A DNA stretch of 64,000 nt, from IMG/VR virus record IMGVR_UViG_3300021599_002865; one strand, written 5' to 3'. The DNA is from an uncultured virus (IMG/VR IMGVR_UViG_3300021599_002865) (lineage: Duplodnaviria; Heunggongvirae; Uroviricota; Caudoviricetes). Position numbers and translations under genes: made by a program. Under the pieces are notes generated by a model that saw only the letters and a list, made by a program, of their open reading frames with translations, had not been told where the DNA came from and searched no databases. Below are positions 52 through 33,819 of the stretch, one piece after another. Position 1 is the stretch's first letter; each line of letters begins with the position of its first letter.

Positions 52-72
52 GGTGGATGTGTTTTGTGAATA

Positions 73-103: not shown

Positions 104-104
104 A

Positions 105-1016
105 TTATTTTTTTAAAAAACCAAGTTCATATACTAATGGTCTCATTCTATCTTCCAAGTTCTTATATAACTGACGAAACTCTTTGAACTCTTCTTGGAA
201 ATATTCTTTCCACACAAGTTTAAGTTGAGCATACCCTGCATCCCAAGAGTTGAGATGATTTTCATCGTTTGCCATAACTTGACGAAGTTCCATAGACCTT
301 TCAACAAGTTCTGTTGCTTTATCTAATACTGCTTTTGCATCAGGAGAAAGTTTGTCGTAGATTCTTTCTTCACCAAATAGAATTTTGTGAACATAACGGT
401 CTGAAGATGTCCTTGCGTCGTTGTAAAGTTCATCATATCCGTTTTGGTCCGCAAGTTCTTTCATCTTGTCTAAGGACATCCAAAAGAATTCGTTTTTTAT
501 ATCCCATAATTGGTCTTTGTATTCAACTTGACGAAGAGAAGATTGATTTGATTTAGACTCGAATAAAGAATAAACAACAGAATCATACTTGAATTGATTG
601 AACAATTCATGTTGTTCATTTGGAGCGAGATATTCGTCCTTTTCGTTTTTCCAATCTGCAGTAATCATTCTTCGAACTGAAAATAATAATAAAGACTCTA
701 TAAAATTTTTTTGAGTAACTGAAAATCCATGACCAACACTACAGGTGCTTGTAAACAAAGCGACATCTTCCATGCTCTTTCCTACATTGTTGGCGGTAGA
801 AAGTAAATAACCAAAACTATTAGGTAATAGTGAACCATACCCTTTTTGTTTCACTTTCAGAGATGAAGAAAGTTGAGGAGCATCTTTCGCCCCTTTTATT
901 TGACCTTTCGCATAATCTTTTAGTGACTTGAGTTGGTCTGTATTATAAACAAATTTGGTTGATTTATTTTCTATTTGAAAATCTTTATTTAATTCAAGTA
1001 AATCGTATGTAAACAT
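105..1016 (-). CDS. C-terminal (target-recognition-like) part of a split Type IIG-like restriction-modification enzyme
   Basis: Begins MFTYDLL right after the MTase ORF; its frame stays open across the upstream stop; no catalytic MTase motifs of its own. Confidence 0.55.
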   Translation of the reverse strand: MFTYDLLELNKDFQIENKSTKFVYNTDQLKSLKDYAKGQIKGAKDAPQLSSSLKVKQKGYGSLLPNSFGYLLSTANNVGKSMEDVALFTSTCSVGHGFSVTQKNFIESLLLFSVRRMITADWKNEKDEYLAPNEQHELFNQFKYDSVVYSLFESKSNQSSLRQVEYKDQLWDIKNEFFWMSLDKMKELADQNGYDELYNDARTSSDRYVHKILFGEERIYDKLSPDAKAVLDKATELVERSMELRQVMANDENHLNSWDAGYAQLKLVWKEYFQEEFKEFRQLYKNLEDRMRPLVYELGFLKK

Positions 1017-1041
1017 TTTGTTTTTTTTGTAAAGATAGGAC

Positions 1042-2526
1042 TTATTTTTTATTTGAGAAAATTGAAAATGAAAGTGCCCAAGAAGACACATCCGCGAAGT
1101 TGGATGAATCCATTATGTAACCTCCTGAAAATGAATATTCACCAAAAAAAAGTTTTCTAAATGTTTCGGAAGATGGTCCTGAAATCCATGTTAATGGAGA
1201 GAATATTGCAATATTCGTTTTGAACTCTTTTTGAATTCTATATATGAATTGAAGGTAGAGTTGTTGAGCCGAATTTCCCATTTTTTCTTTAACCATGATT
1301 TCATTTATCTTAGTTTTACTTGCACCCGCCCTATCATGTCCCTCTTCTTTATAAGATGTTTTTTTCGAACCCGTGGTGTAGGGTGGATTCATCAATACAA
1401 TAATCTCCTTACCTCCCTCAATCGCATTTCTCAAACCAATAGGGAGTTTCTCATAATCATCATTCAAGAAGTCATATTGAAACTTAACCGCTTCAGGGTT
1501 ATATCCCATTTGATTTGCAGTATCAATATCTGCCTGAATTAAAGTTGAACAATAAAGTTCTTTGAACTTATAATCACGGGTAAGATTCCCCGTCCCCCAA
1601 GCAGGGTCCCAAACAATATATTTTTCTTTCCAATCTTCACCGAACACTGATGTGATATATTCGTGGGCTTTGTCTACCCAAATTGAAGGTGTGAAGAACT
1701 CACCTTGTTTACGACGAACAGTATCTTCAACAATGCGGTCAACAACAGCGGCTAACTTATGTTTCTGAGATGGCGTATAAGAAGACGAAAAGTGTCCGAA
1801 GAATGATTCGAAGGCTTCACGAGATACTACAGGAACCTCACCTAACGCCTTTGAAACAACTGTCTTTCTTTTCTTGACAGGGTGAAGATAGTTGTCGTCC
1901 TTGTTCACCAAAATTTGAACAAATAGATTCGCTCTTTCATTGGTAGTGAACTTATTTTTTACAAGAACTTTTTCATCAAAATAACGGAATACCTCTGTAA
2001 TGTTTTTGTCCGTAACGAGAACTTTTCTTTGAACATTATCAGTGAGGTCTTTAACCTTTTGAATACACTCAGGAAAATGATGAGAATCATAGACGAATGG
2101 TTTGATTGATTCGTCCTTCATCATGGTTAATACTAAATCAGTAATTGAATGAGCAGATGAGGGTGGAACACTCCAATCCAAATCCATTTCTAAATACTTA
2201 ATGATATCATTGACATGTAATGTTAAGCACTCGTTTCTATCCCCGATGAAAATTGTAGATGGAGGAACAATTCCTTTATCGTAGAAACGCTTTACATAGA
2301 AAACAGATTGAGCAAGAACTTTTACAAGTTCAGATTTGTTTGACAAATTCAAATCATCTTTGAACTCCATAAGAGTTCTGACCTTGTGAGATTTGGAAAC
2401 TCCGAATCCATCGCATCCAAAAGGAGATGTGATTTCCATATCCTTGAATTTCTTTTTGAATTCGTGTCGGTAGGAATTTTCAACATCTTTTTCATTGAGG
2501 GCTATTGCCAAACTTTTGGACATCAT
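1042..2526 (-). CDS. Type IIG-like nuclease/N6-adenine DNA methyltransferase, N-terminal part
   Basis: PD-(D/E)xK-like CDGFG...LMEFK; GEFFTP; motif I WDPAWGTG; motif IV NPPY. Confidence 0.75.
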   Translation of the reverse strand: MMSKSLAIALNEKDVENSYRHEFKKKFKDMEITSPFGCDGFGVSKSHKVRTLMEFKDDLNLSNKSELVKVLAQSVFYVKRFYDKGIVPPSTIFIGDRNECLTLHVNDIIKYLEMDLDWSVPPSSAHSITDLVLTMMKDESIKPFVYDSHHFPECIQKVKDLTDNVQRKVLVTDKNITEVFRYFDEKVLVKNKFTTNERANLFVQILVNKDDNYLHPVKKRKTVVSKALGEVPVVSREAFESFFGHFSSSYTPSQKHKLAAVVDRIVEDTVRRKQGEFFTPSIWVDKAHEYITSVFGEDWKEKYIVWDPAWGTGNLTRDYKFKELYCSTLIQADIDTANQMGYNPEAVKFQYDFLNDDYEKLPIGLRNAIEGGKEIIVLMNPPYTTGSKKTSYKEEGHDRAGASKTKINEIMVKEKMGNSAQQLYLQFIYRIQKEFKTNIAIFSPLTWISGPSSETFRKLFFGEYSFSGGYIMDSSNFADVSSWALSFSIFSNKK

Positions 2527-2543
2527 ATCTATAAATATTTGTG

Positions 2544-2575
2544 CAAATATAAGACACAAACCCTATTATGCCAAA
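2544..2575 (-). promoter_or_regulatory. Bacteroidota-type promoter, with a TATTTAT motif at 2531-2537
   Basis: TTTG-N20-TATATTTG upstream of ATG 2526. Confidence 0.7.
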
Positions 2576-3831
2576 AGTTTTTTTCCTGCTCTTTCTCTAT
2601 GAAACTTTATTGCAAACCTGTGAACCTCTTCTTGAATAACTCCGAGAACGGACCAATCCATTGGATGTTGTTTACCATCAGTTGTATGAACGGTCTGTGA
2701 CCTGTGTTTTTGGTCTTTCGAAATTGATATCAAATCAATCCTGTTGGTAAGTCCAAGAGACTCAAATACCTTCTTTGCAACGTTTAATTGACCAATTCCC
2801 CCATCAATTAGAACAAGGTCAGGTAGTTGACCCTTTTCATCCAAGAGTCTCTTAAAACGTCTGTAAACCACTTCCTCGAATGACAGACAATCATTACCAT
2901 TGTTTGACTCCTCACGAATGATATACTTACGGTATTCACTCTTGAGAGGTTTGTTATTCACATATCTTACAGAGGCCGCAACATTTGAGTCACCCTGATT
3001 GTGTGAGTTGTCAAACGCCTCGATAATCAAAGGAAGATTTTTAAGACCCAAAACCTTTTTTATACCAAAGGCAATCTTGTTATATTTCCTTACACGGATG
3101 GGTTCGAGTTTCTCTTCAAGTTTTTTGATTTGATTAACCCTGTTGAGGTAGTTGTCCGCCTTTTCGAACTCCAAGTTCTTGGCAAACTCATGCATTTTTC
3201 CTGTGAGAAACACCTTTAACATCTTATAATCAAGTTCGAATATCTTTCGAACAATTAATTGATACTTCAGATATTCAAGGTTCGATTCCAAGGCAATGCA
3301 GGGTGCGTTACAACGACCAATATGATACTCAAGACATGGTTTGAATTTACCTGCCCCGATGTTTTCTTGATTCAAAGTATAGGAACAAGTTCTAAGTGGA
3401 AGGATGTCGTTGATAAGTTCCATAACTTCATACGCCCTTTGACCTGAGGTGAAGTTGATTCCACAGGTGTCCTCACCTTTCCCATGAGTTATTTGAAGTT
3501 TGGAGTATGGTCCACCAGTCAAAGACAAATGCCAAGTTCTTGACTTATCATCTTTACCTTTGATGTTGAACTTGGGTTTGTAAATTTTGATGAGTTCTTC
3601 CTCCATGATGAGAGCCTCAGCCTCAGATGAAGCAATCTGATACTCAACGTCACGTATTTGTTCAACAAGGGTCCTTGTCTTCTTGTCATCGTGTTTCTTA
3701 TTGAAATAAGACGCAACACGTTTGGGAAGGAACTTGGACATCCCCACATATATTACCTGGTCTTTGCCATCTTTGTAGATGTAACAACCAGGGTATTTGG
3801 GAGCTGATTTTATTTTTTCTTTGATGTCCAT
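2566..3831 (-). CDS. uvrC: UvrC-like excinuclease (GIY-YIG, UVR and RNase H-like domains; no C-terminal HhH)
   Basis: PGCYIY...IYVGMSK...RV.SYF; EALIMEEELIK..KPKFN; CLEYHIGRC; LEFEKA; IEAFDNSH; PDLVLIDGG.GQL; EEVHRFA; probable start MDIKEK at 3831. Confidence 0.9.
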   Translation of the reverse strand: MDIKEKIKSAPKYPGCYIYKDGKDQVIYVGMSKFLPKRVASYFNKKHDDKKTRTLVEQIRDVEYQIASSEAEALIMEEELIKIYKPKFNIKGKDDKSRTWHLSLTGGPYSKLQITHGKGEDTCGINFTSGQRAYEVMELINDILPLRTCSYTLNQENIGAGKFKPCLEYHIGRCNAPCIALESNLEYLKYQLIVRKIFELDYKMLKVFLTGKMHEFAKNLEFEKADNYLNRVNQIKKLEEKLEPIRVRKYNKIAFGIKKVLGLKNLPLIIEAFDNSHNQGDSNVAASVRYVNNKPLKSEYRKYIIREESNNGNDCLSFEEVVYRRFKRLLDEKGQLPDLVLIDGGIGQLNVAKKVFESLGLTNRIDLISISKDQKHRSQTVHTTDGKQHPMDWSVLGVIQEEVHRFAIKFHRERAGKKLLA

Positions 3832-4040
3832 TCTTTTCTGTGTTTGTAAAACCAATAGGAGTGAATGATGATAACGCACGAATTTACAACAATTGTCGGA
3901 CCTGCCGAAATTCCGAATCCATAAACTAACCAAAAAATTGCGCCAACCGTGTTGACCGCTCTAAGACGGAAAACGTCCTCAATTAGGAATGAACCTAAAA
4001 TGAGGACGCTCCCGATATATCCATATATTTCCCACATCAT
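3810..4040 (-). CDS. small membrane protein (YgjV-like)
   Basis: Three hydrophobic segments, GYIGS..IL.SF....LR.VN..G pattern; overlaps its neighbours. Confidence 0.6.
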   Translation of the reverse strand: MMWEIYGYIGSVLILGSFLIEDVFRLRAVNTVGAIFWLVYGFGISAGPTIVVNSCVIIIHSYWFYKHRKEWTSKKK

Positions 4041-4492
4041 TTCGCGAATGCTTTATCTGCCCAAGTCTTTGCTCCAACCAATGTCCACAAGTTCATATCA
4101 CACATGTCAGGGAAACAAGTTCTCATGGTTCCAACGGTGATTACCTTTAAGAAACCAAGGTCGATTGAATACCACTTACCACCTTTTGTAGTGTAAACGT
4201 TCATCCACTGACCGTATTCGTTCTTAACTTGAATGTTGACCAAAGAATTCTTGCCATATCCACGGATTACATCAACAGTTCCTTTGGTGTCGTGGATGTT
4301 GATAAACCCAGCTTTGCATTTGCCTGCGATGCGGAATTCATATTCTTTGTTGATATCTTTCAGGTGGTTTGAAACTGAAACGTCGAGAGATTTACCTTTA
4401 ACGAAAGTTCTGAATGAACCGTAAAAAACGTCAGAAGAATAGGCGTTGTTGGTGTTGATGTTTACTGCGGGAAGGGTAGTGGTTTGTGTCAT
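4037..4492 (-). CDS. hypothetical protein
   Basis: Start MTQTTT at 4492, downstream of promoter 4512-4543. Confidence 0.7.
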   Translation of the reverse strand: MTQTTTLPAVNINTNNAYSSDVFYGSFRTFVKGKSLDVSVSNHLKDINKEYEFRIAGKCKAGFINIHDTKGTVDVIRGYGKNSLVNIQVKNEYGQWMNVYTTKGGKWYSIDLGFLKVITVGTMRTCFPDMCDMNLWTLVGAKTWADKAFAK

Positions 4493-4511
4493 ATTGTTGT
4501 GTTTTGTTACA

Positions 4512-4543
4512 CAAAGATAGGGAACCACAATTTACCAGCCAAA
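4512..4543 (-). promoter_or_regulatory. Bacteroidota-type promoter
   Basis: TTTG-N20-TATCTTTG. Confidence 0.75.
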
Positions 4544-4549
4544 TATATT

Positions 4550-4972
4550 TTAAACTTTATCACAAATGTGTGGTTGGAAACAAGCTTGTCCCCCACCTTC
4601 CACATATCCAATTCTTTCATTTATATTTGTTGAACGAAGGTATGGTGATTCTTGTCCACAGATTACACATCTGTCTTTCTCATCCATCTTTGGGTCTCCT
4701 TGGAGAACACATCCCAAATGGTCATATCCTACAAGATAATCATATTCAACTTCAGAAGTATCTTTACCACAGATTGAACAAGTCCAAGGTCGAATGATTT
4801 TCTTTACACTTCCATCAGGAGCAATTTCCATCATGAAATGTTCATCATCTTGAGGAGGACCCTCAAGGTTTCTTCTTTCTTGCCAGTATTTGTTTCTTGC
4901 AAGACCACCAAGTTCGAAGTCGTTAGGTGTGTTTAGGATTTCTTCTGCTGTTAGTGTTACAGTGATTCCCAT
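4550..4972 (-). CDS. hypothetical protein with two CxxC zinc-finger-like motifs
   Basis: CSICG...HLGC and CVICG...C. Confidence 0.65.
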   Translation of the reverse strand: MGITVTLTAEEILNTPNDFELGGLARNKYWQERRNLEGPPQDDEHFMMEIAPDGSVKKIIRPWTCSICGKDTSEVEYDYLVGYDHLGCVLQGDPKMDEKDRCVICGQESPYLRSTNINERIGYVEGGGQACFQPHICDKV

Positions 4973-5032
4973 ATGATTTGTTTTTTAAAAACTAAAGGAA
5001 AATATTCAAAAGACAAATCTATTTATATTAAT

Positions 5033-5446
5033 ATGGAAAAATTTTCTAAAGAATGGAAATATAGATACAAAGAAACGCTTACGGAAAAGTTCAAGTATCT
5101 TTTCCTAAGTGAAATGCACAAACACTTTGAGTTGATAAACCTCCAAGTGACAGACATTTCATATAATGGTGATGTAATGGAGGGAATGGATGTTGATGTC
5201 GAAATTGATTATCAGGGCGCTTGTGACGGAGACGCACACAGTGTTGGACATATGTTATCAATAATCTCAAACCAAGTGCATGAATTTTTTTTCAAACACC
5301 AAATCGACCCAGTAACCTTTAAGTTTAAAGGAGGTGATGTTGATGGTTTAATTATTAATGACCCTATGATATTAGAATTCCATTACAAATTAGATGAACT
5401 ACATAAAGTTCTTTTATACATAACGATGAACTATGACCAACAGTAA
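5033..5446 (+). CDS. hypothetical protein
   Basis: ATG 5033 lies 6 nt after TATTTAT; overlaps the next gene. Confidence 0.65.
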   Translation: MEKFSKEWKYRYKETLTEKFKYLFLSEMHKHFELINLQVTDISYNGDVMEGMDVDVEIDYQGACDGDAHSVGHMLSIISNQVHEFFFKHQIDPVTFKFKGGDVDGLIINDPMILEFHYKLDELHKVLLYITMNYDQQ

Positions 5447-12043: not shown

Positions 12044-12391
12044 ATGATTGTTGAAATTAATGAAAATTATTTTAATGTTAAAACATTGGTTGACCCAAAA
12101 TCCCAAGCTATTGGGATGATGAGAAGAAAATTCGATGATTCATTCAATGGTTTATTATTTTTAATGGGTGGTAAAAAACAATGTTTTTGGATGAAAAATT
12201 GTATCATCCCACTTGATATAATAATGATAAAAAATAATGTTATTGTCAATATACATCACGACTGTCCTCCTTGTTTAGAGGAACCTTGTCCGAGTTATTG
12301 TGGAAATGGAAATATCGTATTAGAACTCGAGGGTGGGACCTGTGAAATGTTAGGGATTGAAGCTGGAGATACGGTAGAATATATCTTCTAA
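12044..12391 (+). CDS. DUF192 family protein
   Basis: GMM.R....GLLF....FWMKNC.IPLDII...VLELEGG...GI..GD.V. Confidence 0.85.
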   Translation: MIVEINENYFNVKTLVDPKSQAIGMMRRKFDDSFNGLLFLMGGKKQCFWMKNCIIPLDIIMIKNNVIVNIHHDCPPCLEEPCPSYCGNGNIVLELEGGTCEMLGIEAGDTVEYIF

Positions 12392-14544
12392 ACTGTGAAA
12401 TCTCTCACAAAAAATTTACTTGACCTCATTCTCAAAAATATTGTTTTTGGTTTCTCAGGCACTGTTCCAAAAAATGGTATTGTGGTTGAACCTATACTAA
12501 TATCTGAAATACCACCTGCTTTAGCAACATCTACTGCAAAGGTTGCACAATTCGAATCACCACCCTCTGTCAAATCTATGAATGAGTAACTTCTTGGTTT
12601 ACTAGCCTCGTTCACAGAGTCTGTGAAATTAGGTAATCTCATAACATTTGTCCACATTGTTAGATTTGGACCGTCTTTGAAAGTTTTGGCTTTACAAGTT
12701 CTTGCAACATCACCAGCATTTGTGAAGTTTCCTTGTGAATCTATAGTCGCAATTTTCCCCATTTCAGTTTTCAAAACCTTTCCGTTTCCATCGTTATCGT
12801 AAGGTCCAAACTCATATAATTTTACAATACCTGTATGGTCAACTAAAATACAACCTCCATGTCCAGTGGCATATATTTTGATTTCTCTCTTTCCAACTTG
12901 TTCATTCAAACCTAAATAATCCTCTACCCACTCCAATGCTCTTCCGTGGAATGCTAATATGCGAGCAATCCAAGAATCTGTCATTGAAGGTCTATATTTC
13001 GGAAAAACAAAGAACATAAAAAAACCTGATTGATTTTTGTCTATGGGTTGAAGTGACTTAAAAACAAAATCATCCTTCTGTCTTGCAATTGATAAACTTG
13101 GTACTCTAATGTCCCCCGAAGAGGGATTGTACTGTTCCTCCAATTTTGACTCAGATTGAGAAATTTTTTCCTTTAACTTTCTGAAGAAATCTGAAGCCAA
13201 CATTTTTGTAAATTTTACATATGGTGCATCTTCTCTTTCAGGGTCATATCTATATTGACCTTCGGGTGGTCTTTTGGACCTACCAAGATAGTTCAATCCA
13301 CTTATATTCGTGATACACTTGTGACCTCCAGAGTTTGCGTTGATTAATTCCCAAGCACTTACATTAATATTATCTAAGATACTTTTTTCTTCATCTGTTA
13401 ATGATGTAAATGGTTTTGACATCATTTCTTTAAGTCTATTCAAAGCCTCTTCTCCTCTTTCTTGTTCTGCAAATTTTTCACCATAAACCGCATTAAAATC
13501 CTCGAATGTAAACCCAACACTTTCAGGGTTAACACCTGTTTCACTAATCCATTTTATCGTTGATAACGGGACTTTTCTTTCCTTGAGTTGAGCTTCATAC
13601 TTTGCAATGACCTCTTTAGCAATCTCTCCGAGATTAACACCTTTGAGCTTCCTTTCCTTTTTAAAAGGATTGCATGATACTTGAAGTAATCCCATCGGCC
13701 ATGCCATGATGAGAAAGTCTGCTTCAGGGTTATTTCTAAATGGGGTATACCTGTCATAAGAGCCAGGCTTAACCATACTACCTCCACCATATTGGTAAAT
13801 GATATTATCTTCAACATGGGGAAATCCTTTCATTTGTTTTGCATAATCTTGTGCGTGTTTTTGTAGTTCTTCTGGTTTTGGTGCATTTGTATCTTTCATC
13901 CATGTTTTGATGTTACTAAGTATATTCATCAAAGATGGTTCTGAATTCATTACAAGTCGCTCCAAAAATCCTTTCTTGTTTTTGAATGCTAAAATGAGTT
14001 TGTTTATAACGAAACCCAATAACATTTTGTTTCTTTGTAACGGCTTTTCTTTATCTAATCTAAAAAGATAATTGACTACCTCCTCGGGACTTATATCTTG
14101 TCTAGCGAAATCTGCGGAGTCAACAGTGTTAATCAATAAAACGTCAGATGAGGGAAATAAATCTTTGGGTGAAATTATTTGTGAGATTGTTTCCACGTTT
14201 GAACGTGCTTGTCTAAATGATTTCGAAGCACCTTTTTCCGCACCTATTTGTTTGTCATGATGGTCCGTGTGGATAACGAACATTGGTTTACCATGAGCAA
14301 AGTCAACCAAAACAGGCATGGTATCACCCTTAGCGTCATTCTTCTTAACCGCAAATTCTTTTTCCCCATATTGTATTACGTGAACATCTACCACATCAAT
14401 ACCATTGTTCTCAAGGTATTTTTTCATCGCAATAGCAGTAGTTACACCATCTAAATCTTGGTGGAAATATATTTCAGCCTTCGGGTATCTTTTTCTTAAT
14501 GCGGAAATATCTCTTAAACCTGTCTCAGTTATTAGGTTCTTCAT
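12388..14544 (-). CDS. DHH-family phosphoesterase fused to a C-terminal permuted papain-like domain
   Basis: FHQDLDG, VDF, TDHH, SGGH; C-terminal TGHGG...YEFGPY...SNCATF. Confidence 0.75.
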   Translation of the reverse strand: MKNLITETGLRDISALRKRYPKAEIYFHQDLDGVTTAIAMKKYLENNGIDVVDVHVIQYGEKEFAVKKNDAKGDTMPVLVDFAHGKPMFVIHTDHHDKQIGAEKGASKSFRQARSNVETISQIISPKDLFPSSDVLLINTVDSADFARQDISPEEVVNYLFRLDKEKPLQRNKMLLGFVINKLILAFKNKKGFLERLVMNSEPSLMNILSNIKTWMKDTNAPKPEELQKHAQDYAKQMKGFPHVEDNIIYQYGGGSMVKPGSYDRYTPFRNNPEADFLIMAWPMGLLQVSCNPFKKERKLKGVNLGEIAKEVIAKYEAQLKERKVPLSTIKWISETGVNPESVGFTFEDFNAVYGEKFAEQERGEEALNRLKEMMSKPFTSLTDEEKSILDNINVSAWELINANSGGHKCITNISGLNYLGRSKRPPEGQYRYDPEREDAPYVKFTKMLASDFFRKLKEKISQSESKLEEQYNPSSGDIRVPSLSIARQKDDFVFKSLQPIDKNQSGFFMFFVFPKYRPSMTDSWIARILAFHGRALEWVEDYLGLNEQVGKREIKIYATGHGGCILVDHTGIVKLYEFGPYDNDGNGKVLKTEMGKIATIDSQGNFTNAGDVARTCKAKTFKDGPNLTMWTNVMRLPNFTDSVNEASKPRSYSFIDLTEGGDSNCATFAVDVAKAGGISDISIGSTTIPFFGTVPEKPKTIFLRMRSSKFFVRDFTV

Positions 14545-24142: not shown

Positions 24143-24986
24143 ATTCATCAACATATTATCCGATATTTTATCTGAAGCTAAAAGATATAAATTCACACCT
24201 GAATTACTACAAAAAATTAATTCGGTCGTAGAAAACCTTTGGAATGACCGAAACAAAAATTACGGTAATAAGAAAGAGGTTGTTGATGTTATCCCCTTCA
24301 AAACTGCAAATGGTGTTGACGGTTTGGTAAAAGTGATTGTTAATCCAAGATTGAAATACTTGGGATTTATGGGAACTAAACCGAGTAAATCTTATGACCC
24401 CGCAGACATTTATATCGAGGTAAATCCAAAATATTACGAATCTAAGAAAAATCTTTATCTTACAATCTATCATGAGATGATACACGCCAGTGACCCAACT
24501 CAAAGTAGTTCTTGGTCTCCAAAATATATGTTGAGCTATGATGAAAAGTCTGATGAAAAGTATTGGGGTCATCCAATAGAATTCTTTGCGATATCAAATG
24601 AGTTCTTGGAAGGTCTTGTAAGAGAATTTGAAAGAAGAGCAAAAAGATTAAGAAAAATTGAAAACAAAGAGATTTTGGATAAGTCTTTGAAAAATATTCT
24701 CAACTATTTTGCCAAGGGTGAGCCATTAAATAAGCTCAGTCAAGACATTCTTTTCAGAATCAATGACGAACACGTAGGACAAGATTCATTCAAAGTTCTT
24801 AAGAATCTGACCGCAGATATGCCCCATTTGGCGGACTTACTTCCTGAAAGAGGTGAGGAACCATATTATTTACACTATGTCGAATTGATTAAGAAATTTA
24901 ATCCTGAAATATGGAAAAAGTTCCTAAGTATGTTCTACAATACAACTTTCGAGATTAGAGACATTATCAACAAAAACTATAAATAA
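24135..24986 (+). CDS. HExxH zincin-like protein
   Basis: IYHEMIHA...YWGHPIEFFA. Confidence 0.6.
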   Translation: MPKFINILSDILSEAKRYKFTPELLQKINSVVENLWNDRNKNYGNKKEVVDVIPFKTANGVDGLVKVIVNPRLKYLGFMGTKPSKSYDPADIYIEVNPKYYESKKNLYLTIYHEMIHASDPTQSSSWSPKYMLSYDEKSDEKYWGHPIEFFAISNEFLEGLVREFERRAKRLRKIENKEILDKSLKNILNYFAKGEPLNKLSQDILFRINDEHVGQDSFKVLKNLTADMPHLADLLPERGEEPYYLHYVELIKKFNPEIWKKFLSMFYNTTFEIRDIINKNYK

Positions 24987-25016
24987 AAAAAAGGGATTTT
25001 TAAATCCCTTTTTTTC
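24985..25016. terminator. bidirectional intrinsic terminator between convergent genes
   Basis: A8-GGGATTT-TT-AAATCCC-T7. Confidence 0.8.
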
Positions 25017-27342
25017 CGCTTGCTAACATTTCCAATTTTTCTAATTTCCTTTCATGGAAATCTAAAAGGGTGGATTGTTCTTTGATTGCCTCTAAACAAG
25101 CTGATATAATCGTTTCAAATCTTATTGATAACATTGTGGTTTCTGGGTCTTCATAAACGAGTTCAGGAAATACCAACTGCAACTCTTGTGCAATAAAACC
25201 TATCTGAAGTAACTCGGGTCTTTCATCATCTTTTATTAGATGGTAGGAAACACCTCTAGTCTTTAATATTTTGTCCAAACTATCTGTAATTGGTCTGATA
25301 TTAGTTTTGAACCTTAAATCCGATGGTCCAGGTGCACCTGATGCACCTTGTGCCCCTGTTGGTCCTGTGCCACCTTGTGGACCAGTTCCACCACCTCCAC
25401 CTTGAGCACCTTGTGGACCTGTTCCTCCTGTTCCACCACCAGTCCCTTGAGCACCTTGATTACCCGTAGGACCGGTTGGTCCTCCAGGACCTTGAGCACC
25501 TTGTGCACCTTGGTTTCCATTACCTTGTGATGGACCTTGGGCTCCTTGAGAACCAGTTCCACCTCCTCCACCAGGAGGTCCTGTGTGACCTTGAGCTCCC
25601 TGTGGACCTCGGTTACCCGTTGGTCCGCCAGGACCCTGAGCACCTTGTGCTCCGCCAGGACCCTGAGCACCTTGTCCACCTTGAGAACCTTGAGCTCCTT
25701 GAGCTCCTGTTGCACCACCACCACCTTGAGAACCTTGTCCTCCCTGTGAACCTTGGGCTCCTTGGTTTCCACCACTGCCTTGAGCTCCTTGCGCACCTTG
25801 TCCTCCTGCCGGTCCTTGTGCTCCTTGGTTACCTTTACCACCTTGAGCTCCTTGCGCACCTTGTCCTCCTGCCGGTCCTTGTGCTCCTTGGGCTCCTCCT
25901 GGGCCTTGAGCTCCTTGCGCACCTTGTCCTCCTGTTGGTCCCTGAGCTCCTTGGTTACCTTTACCACCTTGTGCTCCTTGAGCACCTTGTCCTCCTTGAG
26001 AACCTTGTGAACCTGTGGCACCTACAGGCCCCTGTGCTCCTTGTGCTCCCTGTCCACCTTGTGAACCTTGACCACCTTTGGCACCTTGTGAACCTTGTCC
26101 TCCTTGAGCTCCTTGTCCACCTGTTGGTCCTTGTGCTCCTTGATTACCACCCGAACCTTGCGCTCCTTGAGCTCCTTGTCCACCTGTTGGTCCTGTAGCA
26201 CCCTTACCACCTTGAGAACCTTGTCCTCCTTGAGCTCCTTGTCCACCTGTTGGTCCTTGAGCTCCTTGATTACCACCCGAACCTTGCGCTCCTTGAGCTC
26301 CTTGTCCACCCTGTGAGCCTTGGGAACCTGTGGCACCCGCAGAACCTACTGGACCTTGTGCTCCTTGGCCTCCCTGCGAACCTTGTGAGCCCGTGGCCCC
26401 TTGTGCACCTACTGGCCCTTGAGCTCCCTGTCCACCTTGTGAACCTTGGGAACCTGTGGCTCCTGCTGAACCAACGGGACCCTGAGCTCCCTGTCCACCT
26501 TGTGAACCTTGTGAACCTATGGCACCTTGTGAACCTTGTCCACCTTGAGCTCCTTGTCCTCCCTGTGAACCTTGGGAACCTGTAGCTCCTTGTGACCCAA
26601 CTGGTCCTTGTGCTCCTTGACCTCCTTGTGACCCTTGGGAACCAACCGCTCCCTGAGAACCTGTGGCACCTTGAGCACCTTGACCTCCTTGTGAACCCTG
26701 AGAACCTGTAGCACCTTGTGACCCTACCGGCCCTTGAGCACCTTGTCCACCTTGTGAACCCTGAGAACCGACCGCTCCCTGTGAACCTGTGGCACCTTGA
26801 GCACCTTGACCTCCTTGTGAACCCTGAGAACCAGTATCGCCTTGTGCACCTATTGCACCCTGAGCACCTTGACCACCTTGTGCGCCTTGTGGACCTACAG
26901 CACCTTGGGAACCTTGTGAGCCAGTAATACCTTGAGCCCCTGTTGGACCTTGTGCTCCTTGACCCCCTTGTGAACCTTGAGCACCTTGACCACCTGTCAC
27001 TCCCTGGGAACCTTGATTTCCTTGAGCACCTTGTCCCCCTTGAAAACCAATACTACCTTGAGCACCAGTTGGTTCTCTATTACCAACCCATCCTGTAGAG
27101 TTGATAAGTGTTCCTGCTGAATTTTTTAAACTAGTTGTTATCTTGAGGTTACTATTGTAAGTTACAAATGAAGGTTTATCACTTCTCCAAGCAAGATAAA
27201 CAATATTACTATTATCTGTCCAATGCAAATGTAGTAGTGGTGAATCGTCTTCAAGCTTCAAATATGTTGAGGTTGAGCCAGAATCAACGAATTCGACCGT
27301 GGGAAACGCATAATCAGGATATATTATTATATTTTCAGACAC
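25000..27342 (-). CDS. collagen-like fibre protein C with a C-terminal peptidase S74 chaperone domain
   Basis: ~194 G-X-Y triplets (aa 93-674), then [12 protein letters not shown]...IGFIAQE...PELV and a coiled coil. Confidence 0.9.
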
Positions 27343-29764
27343 TTAAATTATCTTTTAAAATTTTTATTCTCTCCATTATTGAGATTATTCTTTTCTGTTG
27401 TTCTTGAAGTGCACCAATACCCAAACTTACCATAAGACCATATTCAACTGATTTAAAGCCCTCCTCGTCTGTCCAAACAACTTCTGGGACGATATCTTCA
27501 ATTTGCTGTGCAATAAAACCTATTGTTTCACCAGTAAATGCACTTGGAAGAGATATTGCACGGTTCATTGATATTTTAGGATGGTCAACCCATTCGAATC
27601 TAACACCCTCAATACCTTTAACTTTTTCTAATACATTTGTTAAGGATTGAATATTATCTTTAAGTCTTTGGTCTGAAGGTGGACCCTGAGCTCCTTGAGC
27701 TCCTTGACCTCCTGTTGGACCAGTTCCACCCTGAGGACCTGTAGGTCCTACGTTACCTTGAGCACCTTGACCACCTTGGCCCCCACCTGAACCTGTAGCA
27801 CCTTGGGCACCTTGACCCCCTTGACCACCACCCGAGCCTTGAGCCCCTTGGGCTCCCGTAGCTCCTGGTCCTCCACCAGGCCCCACTGCTCCTTGGGCAC
27901 CTTGTCCTCCTGTTCCTCCTGTAGGTCCTGTTGGTCCCTGTGCTCCTTGGAATCCTGTTGCACCTCCCCCTCCTGTTCCACCTTGAGCCCCAACAGGACC
28001 CTGAGCGCCTTGAGCTCCCTGAGCACCACCCTGTGCTCCTTGAGCACCTGTGGAACCACCTCCACCTTGGCTTCCTTGAGCACCTGTAGTTCCACCTTGA
28101 GCTCCTTGAGCACCTGTTGGTCCTTGAGCACCTTGGTTACCTTGTGCACCTTGGTTACCACCTTGAGCTCCTTGGGCTCCTTGTGAACCTTGGACACCAG
28201 GAGCACCTTGTGCACCCGTATTTCCTCCTTGGGCTCCTTGAGCTCCTTGTGAACCTTGGACACCAGGAGCACCTTGTGCACCTGTTGAAGCTCCTTGAGC
28301 TCCCTGAGCCCCTTGAGAGCCCTGAACACCAGGAGCTCCCTGTGCTCCCGTTGAACCACCTTGAGCTCCTTGGGCTCCTTGGGCACCCTGATTACCTGTC
28401 GCACCTTGGGCACCTGTTGAACCACCTTGAGCACCCTGTGAACCTTGTGCCCCTTGTGCTCCAGTATTACCTTGAGCTCCTGTATTGGCTCCTTGTGCTC
28501 CTTGAGCACCTTGTGGTCCTTGTGCACCTTGGTTTCCTTGTGCACCTGTATTGGCTCCTTGTGCTCCTTGAGAGCCTTGAGCTCCTTGAGCACCTGTATT
28601 ACCTTGAGCTCCTGTATTGGCTCCTTGTGCACCTTGAGCACCTTGTGGTCCTTGTGCACCTTGGTTTCCTTGTGCACCTGTTGAAGCACCCTGTGCACCT
28701 TGCGCTCCCTGTCCTCCTTGTGAGCCTTGACCACCTTGAGCACCTGTTGTTCCTCCTTGGGCTCCTTGTGCTCCTGTTCCACCTTGAGCTCCTTGACCTC
28801 CTTGTGCCCCCGTGGTTCCCCCTTGGGCTCCTTGAGCACCCTGTCCTCCTTGTGAACCTTGAGCTCCTTGGGCTCCTGTTGTTCCTCCTTGTGCTCCTTG
28901 AGAACCTTGTGCACCTTGTGCTCCAGTTGAACCCTGAGCACCTGTTGTTCCTCCTTGAGCTCCTTGAGCTCCTTGTCCTCCTTGTGCCCCCTGTGCACCC
29001 TGAGCACCTGTTGTTCCTCCTTGGGCTCCTTGTGCACCTTGTCCTCCTTGGGCTCCTTGTGCACCCTGAGCACCTGTATTAGCTCCCTGAGCTCCTTGTG
29101 AACCCTGTCCTCCTTGTGCTCCTTGAGCTCCTTGAGCACCAATTGTTCCACCTTGAGCACCTTGAGCACCTTGTCCTCCTTGTGCACCTTGTGAACCCTG
29201 AGCACCTGTGTTAGCTCCTTGAGCACCTTGAGCTCCTTGACCACCTTGAGCTCCTTGACCACCTTGAGCTCCCGTATCCGCTCCTTGAGCTCCCTGTGCT
29301 CCCTGTCCACCCGTAGCACCTTGAGCTCCTTGAGGTCCTATCGAACCTTGTGAACCTTGAGCACCTACATTTCCTATTGCTCCCTTAGCACCTTGAGAAC
29401 CTTGCGCTCCTTGAGCACCTATTGACCCCTGAGAGCCTGTAGTTCCTGAAGCACCTTGTGCTCCTTGAGCACCGGTAAATCCAGATATACCCTCAGCAGG
29501 TCCTACCCATTCGCCAACTTCATTAATCATTTCTATACCACCCACATACAATCCATATATTCCTCCGGTGACCTTTGCACCATCAACGAGTAATTCAGCT
29601 CCGATAGTTGCTATGTTACTTTTTGTTGTTGATGAAACTTGGATATTTCCAGAACCATTAACAGATAATTGTATTTTGTCCGCGGATGAAATCCCTTCAA
29701 ATTCCATATGAGGGTTAGGGTTTCCACCACTTTTACCATTGGGATATATTATAACGTCAGACAT
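27335..29764 (-). CDS. collagen-like fibre protein B with periodic interruptions and a peptidase S74 domain
   Basis: 195 units (aa 92-696), including 20 G-X-X-X units spaced 22 aa apart; SDQRLKDNI...IGFIAQQ...PEVV. Confidence 0.9.
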
Positions 29765-32388
29765 TAATTAAGAAGGTTTTCAAGTTCATTTATTTGTTTT
29801 TCGATATCTGATATAAATACTTGTTGCTCTTTAATACCTTCAATCAAAACGGCGTTCATTCTATTATATTCAACAGTATAAAAACCATCAGAACCGATTT
29901 TAACTACTGTCGGGAAAAATTCTTTAACATTTTGAGCTATCAGACCAATCGAGTGAAGCTTGTTATTGTTTAATCTTTTAATGTAATCGCTTTTCGTCAA
30001 CTTTTCATTCCAATCGTATTCTACGACTCTAAGTTCAAGAATTTTTTCAAGTGTATTATCAAGTGATTTAACATTATATTTGACTCTTCTATCAGAGCAG
30101 CTGCCCCCGTATGTAAAATAACCATTGAAGTTAGTAGAACCATAATACAAATATGTAACACCAATCGTAATTGAACCATAGGTCCACTGAAATGTTGAGT
30201 TTTGACAAGTTGTAACATCTGAAGCGAGTTGGATGCTAAAATTTGCTTGCCAGTTAATATCTTGGGAATAAACTGTTCTGTTTTGACATGCCCCCGCGTT
30301 TACACAAATGGCGTAATAAGAATCACCACATAGATTCTGAACAAAACAAGAGGTGAACGAGCCAGGTCCTGTTGCACCTTGTGCACCTTGGGCTCCTTGT
30401 CCTCCCGTAGGACCCGTAGGACCCGTAGGACCACCCGACCCTTGTGCACCTTGGTTACCCGTAGGACCAGTAGGACCACCTGGTCCTTGTGCACCTTGGT
30501 TACCTTGAGGTCCTGTTACACCTGGTGCACCTTGAGCACCTTGACCTCCGTTTGGACCTTTCGGTCCAGCAGCTCCTTGCGCCCCTTGGCTACCCGTAGC
30601 ACCCCCACCACCTTGAGGACCTTGAGCACCTTGAGCACCCTGACCTCCTGTTCCACCTTGTGGTCCTGGAGCACCTTGAGCACCTTGATTTCCTGTTGCT
30701 CCTTGTGCACCTGGATGACCTGTAGCACCCTTACCACCCTGTGAACCCTGAGCACCTGTTGCTCCCTGAGGACCAATTGCACCTGTATTACCCCCTGCAC
30801 CTTGTGCACCTTGTGGTCCTGTGGCACCTTGTGCTCCTGGATGTCCTGTTCCTCCACCAGAACCTGTTGGACCTTGTGGTCCTGTGGCTCCCTGTGCTCC
30901 TGGATGTCCTGTTCCTCCACCTGAACCTTGAGGACCTTGTGGTCCTGTGGCTCCTTGTGCTCCTGGATGTCCTGTTCCTCCACCCGAACCTGTTGGACCT
31001 TGTGGTCCTGTGGCTCCTTGTGCTCCTGTATGACCAACGGCACCTTGAGCACCTTGAGGTCCTGTTGGTCCTGTTGCTCCTTGAGCTCCTGGATGTCCTG
31101 TGGCTCCTTGAGCACCCGTCGAACCTGCATTACCTGTAGCACCTTGAGCACCAGGGTGACCTGTGTTTCCTGTTGGCCCCTGTGCACCTTGTGGTCCTGT
31201 AGCACCTTGAGCACCCGCATGACCCGTCGCACCTTGTGCCCCAGTAGAACCAGCATTCCCCGTAGCACCTTGTGCACCTGGATGACCTGTATTTCCTGTT
31301 GGTCCCTGTGCTCCTTGTGGTCCTGTAGCACCCTGAGCACCAGCATGACCCGTCGCACCTTGTGGTCCTTGAGCCCCTTGAGGACCTGTAGCACCTTGAG
31401 GTCCTACTGCACCTGTAGAACCTGTAGGTCCTTGTGCACCTGTATTACCTGTGGCTCCTTGTGGGCCAACATTTCCTTGTGCTCCTGTATTACCTTGTGC
31501 TCCTGTGTTACCTGTGGCTCCTTGTGGTCCTACGTTACCTGTAGCCCCGGTAGCTCCCTGAGCCCCTGTGTTACCTGTGGCCCCTTGTGGTCCAACATTT
31601 CCTTGTGCTCCTGTATTACCTTGTGCTCCTGTATTACCTGTGGCCCCTTGTGGACCAACATTTCCTTGTGCTCCTGTATTACCTTGTGCTCCTGTGTTAC
31701 CTGTAGCTCCTTGAGCACCTGTATGACCCTGTGCACCTGTATTTCCTTGTGCTCCTGTATTACCTGTGGCCCCTTGTGGTCCAACATTTCCTTGAGCTCC
31801 CGTGTTACCTTGCGCTCCTGTGTTACCTGTGGCTCCTTGTGCACCTGTATTACCCTGTGCACCTGTATTTCCTTGTGCACCGGTATTTCCCGTGGCTCCT
31901 TGTGCACCTGTATTACCCTGTGCACCCTGGGTTGTGCCTTTAGCACCCTGTGCCCCTTGGGGTCCAACCTGACCTTGTGCACCTGTATCACCTTGTGCAC
32001 CTTGTATTCCTTGTAACCCTTGTGCACCCAAATTTCCCTGTGCACCCGTATCACCCTGTGCACCTGTATTGCCCTGCGCACCTTGGTGACCCTGAGCCCC
32101 TTGAGCTCCTGCAATACCTGTGGTTGGTCCAATCCAATCCAAAGTTCCATCAATTACTTGAACTGAGTCAATAGCAAAATAATCAGAAACATTAAGCGTT
32201 ACAACACCAATTGTTTGGCTAGAACGGTCAATAACTAATTGATTAGTAACTGATGCTGAGCTAAGATTAATCTTACCCGTTGGCACAACTCTCCAAACAC
32301 TTGTTCCACTGTTAACCCAATTTATATAAGGGACTCTGTCTGGTGTTCTAGAAATGGAATTACTCGGAACTATTAAAATATCACCCAT
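29764..32388 (-). CDS. collagen-like fibre protein A with a Cys-rich tip domain and a peptidase S74 domain
   Basis: 195 units (aa 91-676); ~88-aa Cys/aromatic-rich domain; SDRRVKYNV...IGLIAQ. Confidence 0.9.
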
Positions 32389-32488: not shown

Positions 32489-33202
32489 ATGACATTAAAA
32501 AAAATAGGTAGCAAATCTTACGTTGTAAACTTACTTTCAGACTACATTCTTTCTGAGATATCAACTGAAGAGAACTCAATAATAAAAGTAATCGACTGTG
32601 GTAATTTTTTTGTTATCAAAGGAAAAACCACTTCAAAAGAAGTTTTATTTTTACCAAACATAATTTCTAAATTTAATGAGAGATTCGAAATACCCTCTAA
32701 ACTCACCCATACAATTGACTTAATTGAATATGATTCTGATTTACCTGATGTAAAGTCAATTTCCCACACATACCACAGTAATACCTCCAACTGTTCATAT
32801 AATCAAACCGAAATCGAAAAAAATGAGATTTCCGAAGAAACTGATGAATTAGTATACGTTTCTTCATTTCCCCACGGTTATTCCCTAACTCAGGGTAGAT
32901 TACTTTATTATTATGGGAAAAAAATATTCTACAACATTCCATCCAATTACCTTGTCACGAGTTTGGAATTTCATCTAACAAATGAGAGAAATGATGAAAA
33001 TGAATTTGGATTCAGCGTTTACGATGGATTTTACAAAACAAAGGATGAAGTGCTTCGTTCTGCGGTCTTAGATATATTTGATTTCAATATGGAGCCAATC
33101 GCCAAAGAAATAAAAAAAGTGGATTGGAGTATCGAACTCACAGACCCACTTTACGAATATGATTTTTTGAAAGAAAAGGTTGAGGGATTTATTATTATAT
33201 AA
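32489..33202 (+). CDS. hypothetical protein, possibly a degenerate SAM-synthetase (MetK)-fold protein
   Basis: Weak pattern resemblance only (NLLSDYIL; FFVIKGKTT; PHGYS...GR..YY.G..I; DIFDF). Confidence 0.45.
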   Translation: MTLKKIGSKSYVVNLLSDYILSEISTEENSIIKVIDCGNFFVIKGKTTSKEVLFLPNIISKFNERFEIPSKLTHTIDLIEYDSDLPDVKSISHTYHSNTSNCSYNQTEIEKNEISEETDELVYVSSFPHGYSLTQGRLLYYYGKKIFYNIPSNYLVTSLEFHLTNERNDENEFGFSVYDGFYKTKDEVLRSAVLDIFDFNMEPIAKEIKKVDWSIELTDPLYEYDFLKEKVEGFIII

Positions 33203-33494
33203 TACCTAATTTTTTTCTGTGTCCTTGTATAATTTGAATTGCCTCAGTTAATTCATTATAATTTCTTTCTGGAGCATATAAATGAGGTTCATAATCTTTA
33301 TCGTCACCTTCGATAATCATCAAAGCTGGAACCATGTCATTTTCCGTCACTTCAGAATACATATTATATTCTTTGGAATACTCATCGATGTCTCGTTCAA
33401 AGAAGTCTATGTTTTCGGTTCTCAACATTTTTTTGAATTCATCACAATGAGGACATCCTTTCATTGTGTATACTATAACGTTTAAATTTTTCAT
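33195..33494 (-). CDS. glutaredoxin
   Basis: VYTMKGCPHC...VP. Confidence 0.85.
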   Translation of the reverse strand: MKNLNVIVYTMKGCPHCDEFKKMLRTENIDFFERDIDEYSKEYNMYSEVTENDMVPALMIIEGDDKDYEPHLYAPERNYNELTEAIQIIQGHRKKLGII

Positions 33495-33495
33495 T

Positions 33496-33819
33496 TTAAT
33501 CTAAAAGATTTAATACTTCGGGTGCAGTCATGACACCAGGTTTAGAAAACACCTCTTTACCTTCTTTAAATATTTTAATTGTTGGAACACTTCTGATTTG
33601 AAGTTCGTTTACGACATACTCTCTATCGGAATCAATATCCAACTTATAGATTGAATACTTGGGTGAACTTGTTGACTCACTAATCAGGGATTCGTTCACC
33701 TTTTCGAGATTGTATAACATTATTTTACAAGGTCCGCACCATGTTGCAAACAAATCCAATACAAAATTTTCTCCGTTGTTAATTTTTTGTTTAAGTTGTT
33801 CCGTTGTTATCTGTTCCAT
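33496..33819 (-). CDS. trxA: thioredoxin
   Basis: LDLFATWCGPCK...IRSVPT..IFKEG. Confidence 0.9.
   Translation of the reverse strand: MEQITTEQLKQKINNGENFVLDLFATWCGPCKIMLYNLEKVNESLISESTSSPKYSIYKLDIDSDREYVVNELQIRSVPTIKIFKEGKEVFSKPGVMTAPEVLNLLD

Follow-up and report, generated by a model that had tools for sequence, protein, structure and literature searches.

Three collagen-like genes of matched unit count in a jumbo phage: candidate chains of an A:B:C heterotrimeric collagen

Do three neighbouring collagen-like genes of a phage encode three separate fibres, or the three chains of a single one? The question is raised by a 64,000-nucleotide stretch of DNA (the window) from the uncultured virus IMGVR_UViG_3300021599_002865, a complete jumbo-phage record of 321,139 bp, in which three overlapping collagen genes, A, B and C, lie on the minus strand. 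A first reading made from the letters of the window (the sequence-only reading) had described three tandem, translationally coupled genes of one design, with an N-domain ending in W-x-G, a collagen domain and an S74 domain, and both the open reading frames and the Pfam matches agree with it. The features of the locus are these:

29764-32388, minus strand: gene A, 874 aa; NA N-domain, collagen, Cys-rich tip and SA-type S74 domain
32128-32388, minus strand: N-domain of A, aa 1-87, ending W85-I-G87, without known family
30361-32130, minus strand: collagen domain of A, aa 87-676; 196 units, 590 residues; units 1 and 22 have four residues
30097-30360, minus strand: tip of A, aa 677-764, 88 aa, Cys-rich
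29767-30096, minus strand: S74 domain of A, aa 765-874, SA type; PF13884 match (E 7e-14) at aa 765-830
27335-29764, minus strand: gene B, 809 aa; NB N-domain, collagen with periodic four-residue units, SB-type S74 domain
27677-29503, minus strand: collagen domain of B, aa 88-696; 196 units, 609 residues
27338-27676, minus strand: S74 domain of B, aa 697-809; PF13884 match (E 8.4e-13); the collagen ends G-P-P before the Ser
25000-27342, minus strand: gene C, 780 aa, GTG start; NC N-domain, collagen, SC-type S74 domain
25324-27084, minus strand: collagen domain of C, aa 87-673; 196 units, 587 residues
25003-25323, minus strand: S74 domain of C, aa 674-780; PF13884 match (E 2.8e-16)
24985-25016, minus strand: putative terminator hairpin by consensus match, 14 pairs followed by a T-run, spanning the stop codon of C

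Genes A and B overlap by 1 nt (TAATG) and genes B and C by 8 nt (GTGTCTGA); the GTG start of C agrees with that of its orthologues. No terminator-like site was seen on the same strand between A, B and C, the sole one of the gene set lying after C, and the layout is that of a single operon. A, B and C are the only Peptidase_S74 genes in the genome, and no recognisable structural module was found among the neighbouring genes, PHROGs included. The cluster recurs in seven contigs from other samples with 0 mismatches over 9,401 bases, all sequences compared here being metagenome assemblies.

All three collagen domains match Pfam Collagen (PF01391; E 1.1e-73 for A, 1.2e-33 for B and 3.3e-40 for C). 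The unit count starts at the W-x-G glycine and stops at the S74 serine in B and C, and at the last G-P-x triplet ahead of the tip in A; in two relatives, L200 (G-T-A) and L202 (variant S74 motif), the end of A was placed manually with the help of the tip junction in the alignment. A naive walk from glycine to glycine reproduces the spans given in the sequence-only reading, namely A from aa 91 with one four-residue unit, B at aa 92-696 with 195 units that include 20 four-residue ones, and C at aa 93-674 with 194 units. The start of C admits one refinement: from its W-x-G glycine onwards the residues G-N-R-E-P-T make two units, the second with its Gly replaced, and the count becomes 196. Counted from the W-x-G glycine, the chains thus stand at 196/196/196 units on 590/609/587 residues, as expected from the claim that unit counts are equal and residue counts are not. 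Plain triplets account for 194 (A), 175 (B) and 193 (C) of the 196 Gly-led units, and the 21 four-residue units of B fall at unit 1, then at unit 25 and every seventh unit through 158. Each chain uses GAQ more often than any other unit, and the domains are nearly uncharged (K+R+D+E 0.5-1.4%). Encoded proline is only 3-8% and no hydroxylase figures in this analysis, which bears on how stable the helix would be.

The equality was followed through 20 distinct lineages (60 chains), with 100 to 271 units per chain. The counts of A, B and C match exactly in nine lineages, both short (100/100/100, 120/120/120, 141/141/141, 162/162/162 and 175/175/175) and long (196/196/196, 217/217/217, 225/225/225 and 271/271/271). 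They agree to within 1 unit in 15 of the 20 lineages and within 2 units in 17. Agreement of this order did not arise in any of 100,000 permutations, whose maximum was 3 lineages at a tolerance of 1 and 4 at a tolerance of 2. For the 17 lineages that match, the spread averages 0.59 units, as against 6.16 when residues divided by three are compared, and since B carries 10-33 four-residue units per chain in these lineages, it is units and not residues that are conserved. The test set beforehand, that triplet counts should co-vary in relatives, therefore came out in favour of a shared length. Its second half concerned the loss of single genes, and no contig with enough flanking sequence lacks an N-domain type. 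Indels between L032 and L200 cluster at about 117-154 units in all three chains, at places that are not identical and within repeats where alignment is ambiguous.

Three lineages are mismatched, by 11-28 units, or by 13-28 when the longest chain is set against the shortest: L020 (133/161/147), L192 (158/171/169) and L202 (174/161/174). They rank 2, 3 and 6 of 20 for the longest exact tandem DNA repeats (rank-sum p 0.014, hand-counted), and these repeats mean that the mismatches may be assembly errors or fresh slippage. Independent contigs for these lineages break within the repeats and do not decide between the two. For L202, contigs from the four freshwater or lake runs with the locus span the non-repetitive parts only, and among the read-derived pieces listed none crosses a collagen block.

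Large inserts leave the unit count intact. L016-A has 7+23+111 = 141 units around inserts of 221 and 92 aa, with partners of 141/141; L202-A has 93+81 = 174 units around a 180-aa insert, with a C chain of 174; and chain 1 of L196 has 6+216 = 222 units around a 241-aa insert, with partners of 223/224. Inserts in the relatives are of lectin type (PA14, 2.6e-11; Laminin_G_3, 1.9e-8). The repeat period is likewise common to the three chains and shifts in all of them together: in the window and in L008, L017, L020 and L021 the leading internal repeat lags are 7/14 units, and in L033 every one of the three chains has 13/26 in their place. The interruptions vary more in position. In the close family those of A and C overlap little; in the distant family zero shift is best in two of the three chain pairs of L034, whereas chains 1 and 2 of L116 give 3 coincidences at zero shift against 7.1 expected and 16 at their best shift, -2, which we suspect to be an index offset after large inserts.

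The N-domains are about 87 aa long in all three chains and end in W-x-G. Searches of PHROGs, Pfam and PDB profiles gave no family match for them; a protein atlas lead to a baseplate N-terminal family (0.84) was set aside as too weak, the other hits being unnamed viral clusters. Among 77 loci with an N-domain match, 68 have one of each type, and the other nine comprise seven end-cut contigs of 5 kb or less and two loci of the distant family whose third type is below threshold. The NB and NC domains had no tblastn match among 50,697 cultured-phage records, and prokaryote genomes gave one, on a 2.7-kb MAG contig without context. Every complete trio has exactly one each of NA, NB and NC and of SA, SB and SC. 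This complement is preserved in L196, L034 and L116, where the pairings have recombined to NA-SB, NC-tip-SA and NB-SC. Paralogues are about 17-31% identical and orthologues about 31-60%. A model of NA+NB+NC together gave an ipSAE of 0.91 (runs 0.91, 0.91 and 0.90; best control 0.20) that does not discriminate the trio from paralogue homotrimers, with a partner pLDDT of 90 and contact agreement of at least 97%. The mark for such complex models was calibrated on 157 solved complexes, of which 116 attain it, and on 215 mismatched pairs, of which 2 do; these counts are a rough guide here, since the alignments used were our own.

At the other end, all three Peptidase_S74 matches lie well above the cut-off of 22 bits (52.3 for A, 48.8 for B and 60.0 for C). 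The S74 domain of A also matches tail-fibre PHROGs (for example phrog_5668 at 2.7e-24) and keeps the motif S-D-x-R-x-K; all 60 chains of the 20 lineages have S-D-x-x-x-K, and Ser1 and Lys6 are invariant in three alignments of the domain. In S74 domains this Ser and Lys form the catalytic dyad. By the tail-fibre matches and the lectin-type inserts of relatives, the trio may be a phage tail fibre with a host-binding role. As the sequence-only reading had it, only A has a tip, and the collagen of B and C runs straight into the S74 serine. The tip has no Pfam family and contains six Cys in the window, four of them invariant among 11 lineages; the first lies 3-5 aa past the collagen and the last immediately ahead of the S74 Ser. 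The first and last Cys may bring the ends of the tip together, which would place the S74 domain of A level with those of B and C. A monomer model of tip and S74 domain from an 11-row alignment had a mean pLDDT of 45 and was unusable. The collagen of C ends G-P at the S74 Ser, one residue shorter than that of B. The distance from the last Gly to this Ser is three residues in 19 of 20 SB chains and two in 15 of 20 SC chains, the two being swapped in L202, and the offset would fit a built-in one-residue stagger.

The best explanation of these data, which we consider likely, is a heterotrimeric phage collagen in which the products of A, B and C co-assemble 1:1:1 into a single triple helix, as first proposed for the window; the matched counts, the inserts, the shared period and the one-of-each end domains all support it. 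Collagen rises 0.286 nm per residue, at which the helix would be about 168 nm long. Its virion-proximal cap would be a heterotrimer of the paralogous NA, NB and NC domains, and its distal cap during folding an SA:SB:SC heterotrimer that is then self-cleaved off. With both ends of the helix tied in this way, the chains would need equal numbers of Gly-led units, and a change of length in one gene would be selected against until the other two matched it. The extra residue in every seventh unit of B would bulge out without adding a step to the register; since a chain of a 7/2 triple helix completes one turn in seven units, all the bulges would come to lie on one face of the rod. For a triple-helical chain with at least 20 bulges of one residue each we know of no citable precedent. 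The tip of A and the PA14 and ConA-like lectin inserts would loop out of one chain only, and the fibre would thus carry single-copy adhesin domains. With somewhat less assurance, but still on balance, we favour the fuller reading of an obligate natural A:B:C collagen outside animals, with end caps that would hold register over 100-271 units, bulges in B, lectins that loop out and lengths that co-evolve.

Separate homotrimers A3, B3 and C3, kept to one length by bundling side by side or by a common anchor, appear to us unlikely, although they have precedent on their side. S74 proteins are not known in any form but the homotrimer, nothing in the composition of the collagen domains forbids homotrimers here, and the N-domain trio model is compatible with them. 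The available text of PMC8968730 reports prokaryotic collagen-like proteins in this form only. Lateral packing could in principle yield equal counts and shared periods, but in nine of 20 lineages the chains match to the unit, 0.86 nm over lengths of up to 233 nm, which is much tighter than packing should need. The 10-33 extra residues of B should also lengthen B3 relative to A3 and C3, unless they contribute no rise, and inserts of 92-241 aa in three copies would lengthen a fibre, yet the collagen units match. After cleavage B3 and C3 would be bare collagen ends with nothing tying them, and homotrimers offer no obvious reason for the retention of one of each N and S74 type despite recombination.

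Promiscuous assembly (AAB, ABB, ABC and so on), in which equal counts would let any mixture close both ends, we regard as improbable, more so than homotrimers. It draws on the fold-level likeness shared by the paralogous N and S74 domains and on the complex-model mark, which near relatives of a genuine partner may pass as well. The low identity of the paralogues relative to the orthologues, with types distinct in all lineages, points instead to three non-interchangeable positions, and the overlapping genes suggest equimolar synthesis. That no shared constraint exists, the equality being chance or left over from a recent triplication, would suit the equal counts of the window alone but is hardly credible, since paralogues far more diverged than orthologues place the triplication before all 20 lineages, the count has changed in every lineage in three genes together, and no permutation reproduced the agreement.

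The A:B:C collagen proposed here has its nearest parallels in animals, in complement C1q with its A, B and C chains and in type IV collagen, whose chain alignment is discussed in the available part of PMC11923368. Like these, the phage trio has three chains from clustered separate genes, matched lengths, non-collagenous end domains that would select the chains, interruptions or extra residues in single chains and a globular head at one end; there is no sequence kinship beyond Gly-X-Y. It differs in its phage-specific N-domain and self-cleaving S74 domain, its low proline and near lack of charge, and the strictly periodic insertion of one residue every seven units in one chain, and its helix would be far longer and more repetitive than that of C1q. 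Collagen-like phage fibres with S74 domains (PF01391 with PF13884), such as those of E. coli prophages described in the available portion of PMC3368898, share the order of N-terminal anchor, collagen stalk and S74 domain, but are single genes described as homotrimers, whereas here three paralogues always occur together. In Pasteuria ramosa, collagen-like genes stand in ordered triplets whose members represent three sequence groups, one apiece, share an orientation and are duplicated set by set (PMC13233619, citing McElroy et al. 2011); these belong to a bacterial spore surface and have BclA-like C-terminal domains and not S74, and the accessible text of that paper reports no length matching.

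So far, a mixed-chain collagen helix is known only from animals. PMC7743900, in the part available, treats heterotrimers as a general possibility only, and our search, with most subscription journals outside its range, brought up no heterotrimeric collagen described from a phage or prokaryote. Heterotrimeric collagens are central in animal biology and hard to produce. As far as the available text of PMC8968730 goes, prokaryotic collagens, being homotrimers, are of limited use as models for them, and correct chain stoichiometry and stagger are hard to achieve. If the A:B:C reading is true, these phages would provide a natural system, expressible in bacteria, from which defined A:B:C helices as long as about 230 nm could be made. 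It would come with two sets of end domains that pick the chains, chaperones that remove themselves, ready-made heterotrimerisation domains and a rule book for long, register-defined mixed collagens. For the phage itself, a fibre of this kind could bear one tip or lectin domain and not three copies, and the trio would represent a novel form of co-evolution that locks three repeat arrays to the same unit count.

The window is part of a complete virus record of 321,139 bp with direct terminal repeats, i.e. a jumbo phage. Three collagen genes are arranged head to tail on its minus strand between 25000 and 32388, in a region with a GC content of ~0.50-0.53 as against ~0.30-0.40 outside it:

29764-32388, minus strand, gene A, 874 aa
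27335-29764, minus strand, gene B, 809 aa
25000-27342, minus strand, gene C, 780 aa, GTG start

Pfam Collagen and a C-terminal Peptidase_S74 domain score above the curated cut-offs in all three products, which are the only S74 matches of the whole genome. The stop codon of A overlaps the start of B (TAATG), and C starts, with its GTG, shortly before B ends (GTGTCTGA). The stop codon of C is spanned by a terminator-like hairpin (14 pairs and a T-run), no terminator-like site was found between the three genes on the minus strand, and the flanking genes lie on the opposite strand. Judged by the overlaps, the lone terminator-like site and these flanks, A, B and C appear to form a single, translationally coupled transcription unit. 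Just past the neighbour of the operon (33195-33819, minus strand) are two small ORFs that resemble glutaredoxin and thioredoxin by their C-x-x-C motifs (CPHC and CGPC, noted by eye); they could be relevant to the disulfide-rich tip, the Cys-rich region between collagen and S74 in chain A.

The sequence-only reading had proposed from matched triplet counts that the chains form an A:B:C heterotrimeric collagen. A plain Gly-to-Gly walk returns the same spans and counts, and the observation is confirmed, in a form much stronger than was visible to that reading. For our own counts both anchors were chosen to be recognisable in all relatives: the start anchor was the glycine of the W-x-G motif that closes the N-domain; the end anchor was the serine opening the S74 domain in B and C, or the last G-P-x triplet ahead of the Cys-rich tip in A. 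The stretch between anchors was parsed by a dynamic-programming segmenter, with costs fixed before the relatives were looked at: Gly-led triplets were free, four- and two-residue units and Gly-less triplets were penalised, and long inserts were set apart. Parsed in this way, window chains A, B and C have 196/196/196 units (Gly-led steps) in 590/609/587 residues, the surplus of B being 21 four-residue units at unit 1, unit 25 and then each seventh unit to 158. The four-residue units of B (27677-29503) and of the B-type chains of relatives are mostly G-[AG]-[NST]-T (context in B, G-A-N-T-G-A-Q), starting at unit 25, and in most lineages another follows at each seventh unit without change of phase (index mod 7 = 4); relative L033 is an exception, with about two per 13 units. 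Seven triplets correspond to a full turn of a single chain in a 7/2 collagen helix, which would place the bulges of B's extra residues along a single face of the rod.

Viral and metagenome collections were scanned with the A N-domain, the A tip plus S74 and the B S74, and with alignments of the B and C N-domains; a genome-collection scan and two stretches of the genome that holds the window completed a set of 230 loci. At least one N-domain of A, B or C type (NA, NB, NC) is present in 77 loci, 68 of which carry exactly one of each. The remaining nine comprise seven contigs of ≤5 kb cut at an end and two distant-family loci with the third type under threshold. The N-domain profile found only 94 proteins at E ≤0.001 among 1.84 billion representatives, mostly short fragments, and the N-domains had no match in Pfam, PHROGs or PDB. 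Among 185,579 prokaryote genomes the NB domain had a single match (L230), in a Betaproteobacteria MAG, on a contig of 2,696 bp whose end truncates the gene; this is probably phage DNA binned with the MAG and hints only faintly, if at all, at the host. After removal of repeated fetches and identical copies (L018 = L017, L229 = L228, and seven contigs with the window's own cluster), 20 distinct lineages including the window were counted, with pairwise identities of the B-type S74 domain (SB) of median 0.59 and minimum 0.38. Loci in which a contig end cuts at least one gene (L108, L109, L111, L112, L113, L115, L230) were excluded from the counts.

Collagen units per chain, in gene order, in the 20 lineages (L plus number, locus of a relative)
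window 196/196/196
L008 225/225/225
L016 141/141/141
L017 144/144/143
L019 175/175/175
L020 133/161/147
L021 217/217/217
L031 100/100/100
L032 156/156/155
L033 162/162/162
L110 120/120/120
L191 143/143/142
L192 158/171/169
L196 222/223/224
L199 120/121/120
L200 160/160/159
L201 157/157/156
L202 174/161/174
L220 271/271/271
L228 169/171/170

The three genes agree exactly in 9 of the 20 lineages, to within one unit in 15 and within two in 17; in the other three (L020, L192, L202) the longest and shortest chains are 13-28 units apart. When B and C counts were shuffled among lineages, the observed agreement was reached in 0 of 100,000 trials, with a maximum of 3 lineages at tolerance 1 and 4 at tolerance 2. 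Several one-unit differences fall at ambiguous spots: G-G-S-P-T-G in L017-C is readable as two or three units, and C of L032, L200 and L201 ends A-T-P|S, not G-P|S (the bar marks the start of S74). In a parser-free check covering lengths of 300-814 residues, the collagens of the tip-bearing and SC chains (SC, C-type S74) were ≤5 residues apart in 16 of the 17 matched lineages, and 10 apart in L191. Mean spread over these 17 is 0.59 units versus 6.16 in residues/3, because B-type collagen has 10-33 extra residues. The glycines of a triple helix sit at its axis, with the three chains staggered by one residue, and a chain with an extra residue must let it bulge outwards. A shared glycine register would predict just such a constraint, one on the number of glycines and blind to extra residues. 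As a heterotrimer, the fibre of the window would be ~168 nm long, and those of the lineages 86-233 nm.

All sequences are metagenome assemblies. Assembly errors, if random, would upset equal counts, not produce them, and the window's cluster is identical to seven other contigs over 9,401 bases. The mismatched L020, L192 and L202, which count against a heterotrimer, between them take places 2, 3 and 6 when the 20 lineages are ranked by longest exact tandem DNA repeat (115, 111 and 93 bp). Either assembly errors or very recent slippage could explain this, independent contigs from four runs breaking off at the collagen repeats. The steps of L020 (133, 147, 161) each equal one 14-unit period, its own leading lag.

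The collagen of one chain is split by globular domains in three lineages. In L016-A, interrupted by inserts of 221 and 92 aa, the collagen blocks sum to 141 units against 141/141 in its partners; chain 1 of L196 (insert of 241 aa) sums to 222 against 223/224, and L202-A (180 aa) to 174 against 174 of C. The L202 insert is a PA14 domain (Pfam, E 2.6e-11) and one distant-family insert a ConA-like Laminin_G_3 domain (Pfam, E 1.9e-8); those of L016, L196 and L034 had no Pfam family match. Separate homotrimers would make the insert-bearing fibres longer than those of the partner chains, and nothing would then call for equal collagen sums. If the helix is mixed, an insert could loop out of its own chain alongside two partners that continue uninterrupted.

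Viewed unit by unit, every chain is built up of higher-order repeats. In the window, L008, L017, L020 and L021, lags of 7, 14, 21 and 28 units lead in A, B and C alike, with identity at lag 7 or 14 of ~0.3-0.6 versus a mean of 0.1-0.3; L033 differs, the peaks of its three chains being at 13 and 26 (0.29-0.34). GAQ is the commonest unit in A, B and C; otherwise GAT and GNT abound in A, GSQ and GGQ in C. Gene conversion is ruled out as the cause of the common period, since the repeat sequences differ from chain to chain. As a point against a heterotrimer, the helix is almost uncharged, and any chain selection must therefore fall to the end domains.

Profile HMMs of the end domains, built from 11 lineages, were applied to the 20 lineages and to two distant loci, L034 and L116. 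Every trio contains exactly one NA, NB and NC and one SA, SB and SC. They are paired NA-SA, NB-SB and NC-SC in 19 of the 20 close lineages; L196, L034 and L116 have NA-SB, NC-(tip)-SA and NB-SC and a different gene order, and thus keep the full complement though domains have moved between chains. This fits a cap at each end made of all three types. N-domain identity is ~17-25% between paralogues versus ~31-60% between orthologues, so the triplication is older than the sampled family. The last Gly precedes the S74 Ser by 3 residues in 19 of 20 SB chains and by 2 in 15 of 20 SC chains, the two distances being swapped in L202; the N-terminal junction reads W-x-G-x-x-x-G in A and B, and W-x-G-x-x-x-P-x-G in C. 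These fixed one-residue offsets between paralogues would fit a built-in stagger. The tip is dispensable in at least one lineage, since the SA-type chain of L228 (7867-14258; = L229) is without it and all three chains there end in bare collagen before S74.

The three N-domains, with six collagen units and an 11-row alignment each, were predicted together as a complex. For partner C the ipSAE was 0.91, 0.91 and 0.90 in three runs versus 0.00, 0.00 and 0.20 in controls, with a partner pLDDT of 90 and at least 97% of contacts common to the runs. In calibration, 116 of 157 solved complexes attained the mark, as did 2 of 215 mismatched pairs; for our own alignments these counts are only approximate. 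The prediction supports binding of the N-domains of A, B and C to each other, and its score would be compatible with a heterotrimer and with homotrimers of paralogues alike.

The distant sister family comprises two trios:

L034:2194-15465, three collagen-S74 genes
L116:6434-19396, three collagen-S74 genes

These genes are 1,300-1,900 aa with ~350-370 units each, ~50 interruptions per chain (often S-T-D-K, some at a 13-unit period) and lectin-type inserts in the tip-bearing chain. Their counts are only roughly equal (L034 368/366/370; L116 356/352/incomplete). Interruptions of the L034 chains coincide at 17-20 positions versus ~7.3 expected, zero shift being best or joint best in 2 of 3 pairs; those of L116 chains 1 and 2 coincide at 3 positions at zero shift and 16 at shift -2. 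As support for a heterotrimer this family is suggestive only. Outside the window, a fourth, very large collagen-like gene lies across the record ends (~1-5400 and 320273-321139, minus strand; L187, L188). It encodes ~2,100 aa, a length that is approximate because the terminal repeat falls inside tandem repeats, with G-T-S / G-S-S type repeats, 588 Gly-x-x-Gly steps and a globular, non-S74 C-terminus.

Elsewhere in the window, the 718-aa product of 12388-14544 (minus strand) weakly matches the DHH family at its N-terminus and has a TseH-like domain (E 5.6e-8); it may be a hydrolase of the cell wall. Other phage genes (48938-49735, 39459-40379, 2566-3831, 16191-17054, 38263-39102 and 52607-57133) encode a sigma-70 family factor, a full DnaJ, a UvrC-like nuclease (GIY-YIG plus RNase H domain), two DNA methyltransferases (N6_N4 and Dam-like) and an SbcC-like/phosphoesterase (SbcCD-like) pair.

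The literature searched yielded no account of heterotrimeric collagen from a phage or a prokaryote. For the gene arrangement the nearest precedent comes from Pasteuria ramosa, whose collagen-like genes stand in ordered triplets (PMC13233619). For Pasteuria collagen-like genes, the accessible sections of one paper raise heterotrimers solely as a general possibility (PMC7743900), and a term search of a 2025 preprint gave no mention of them.

An A:B:C heterotrimer would account for five independent sequence patterns, of which it is the most economical explanation, and it passes the one modelling test run, that of the N-domain trio. The trio shares with many phage fibres a collagen stalk with an S74 chaperone. 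It would work as animal heterotrimeric collagens such as C1q or type IV do but, unlike these, is built of phage parts.
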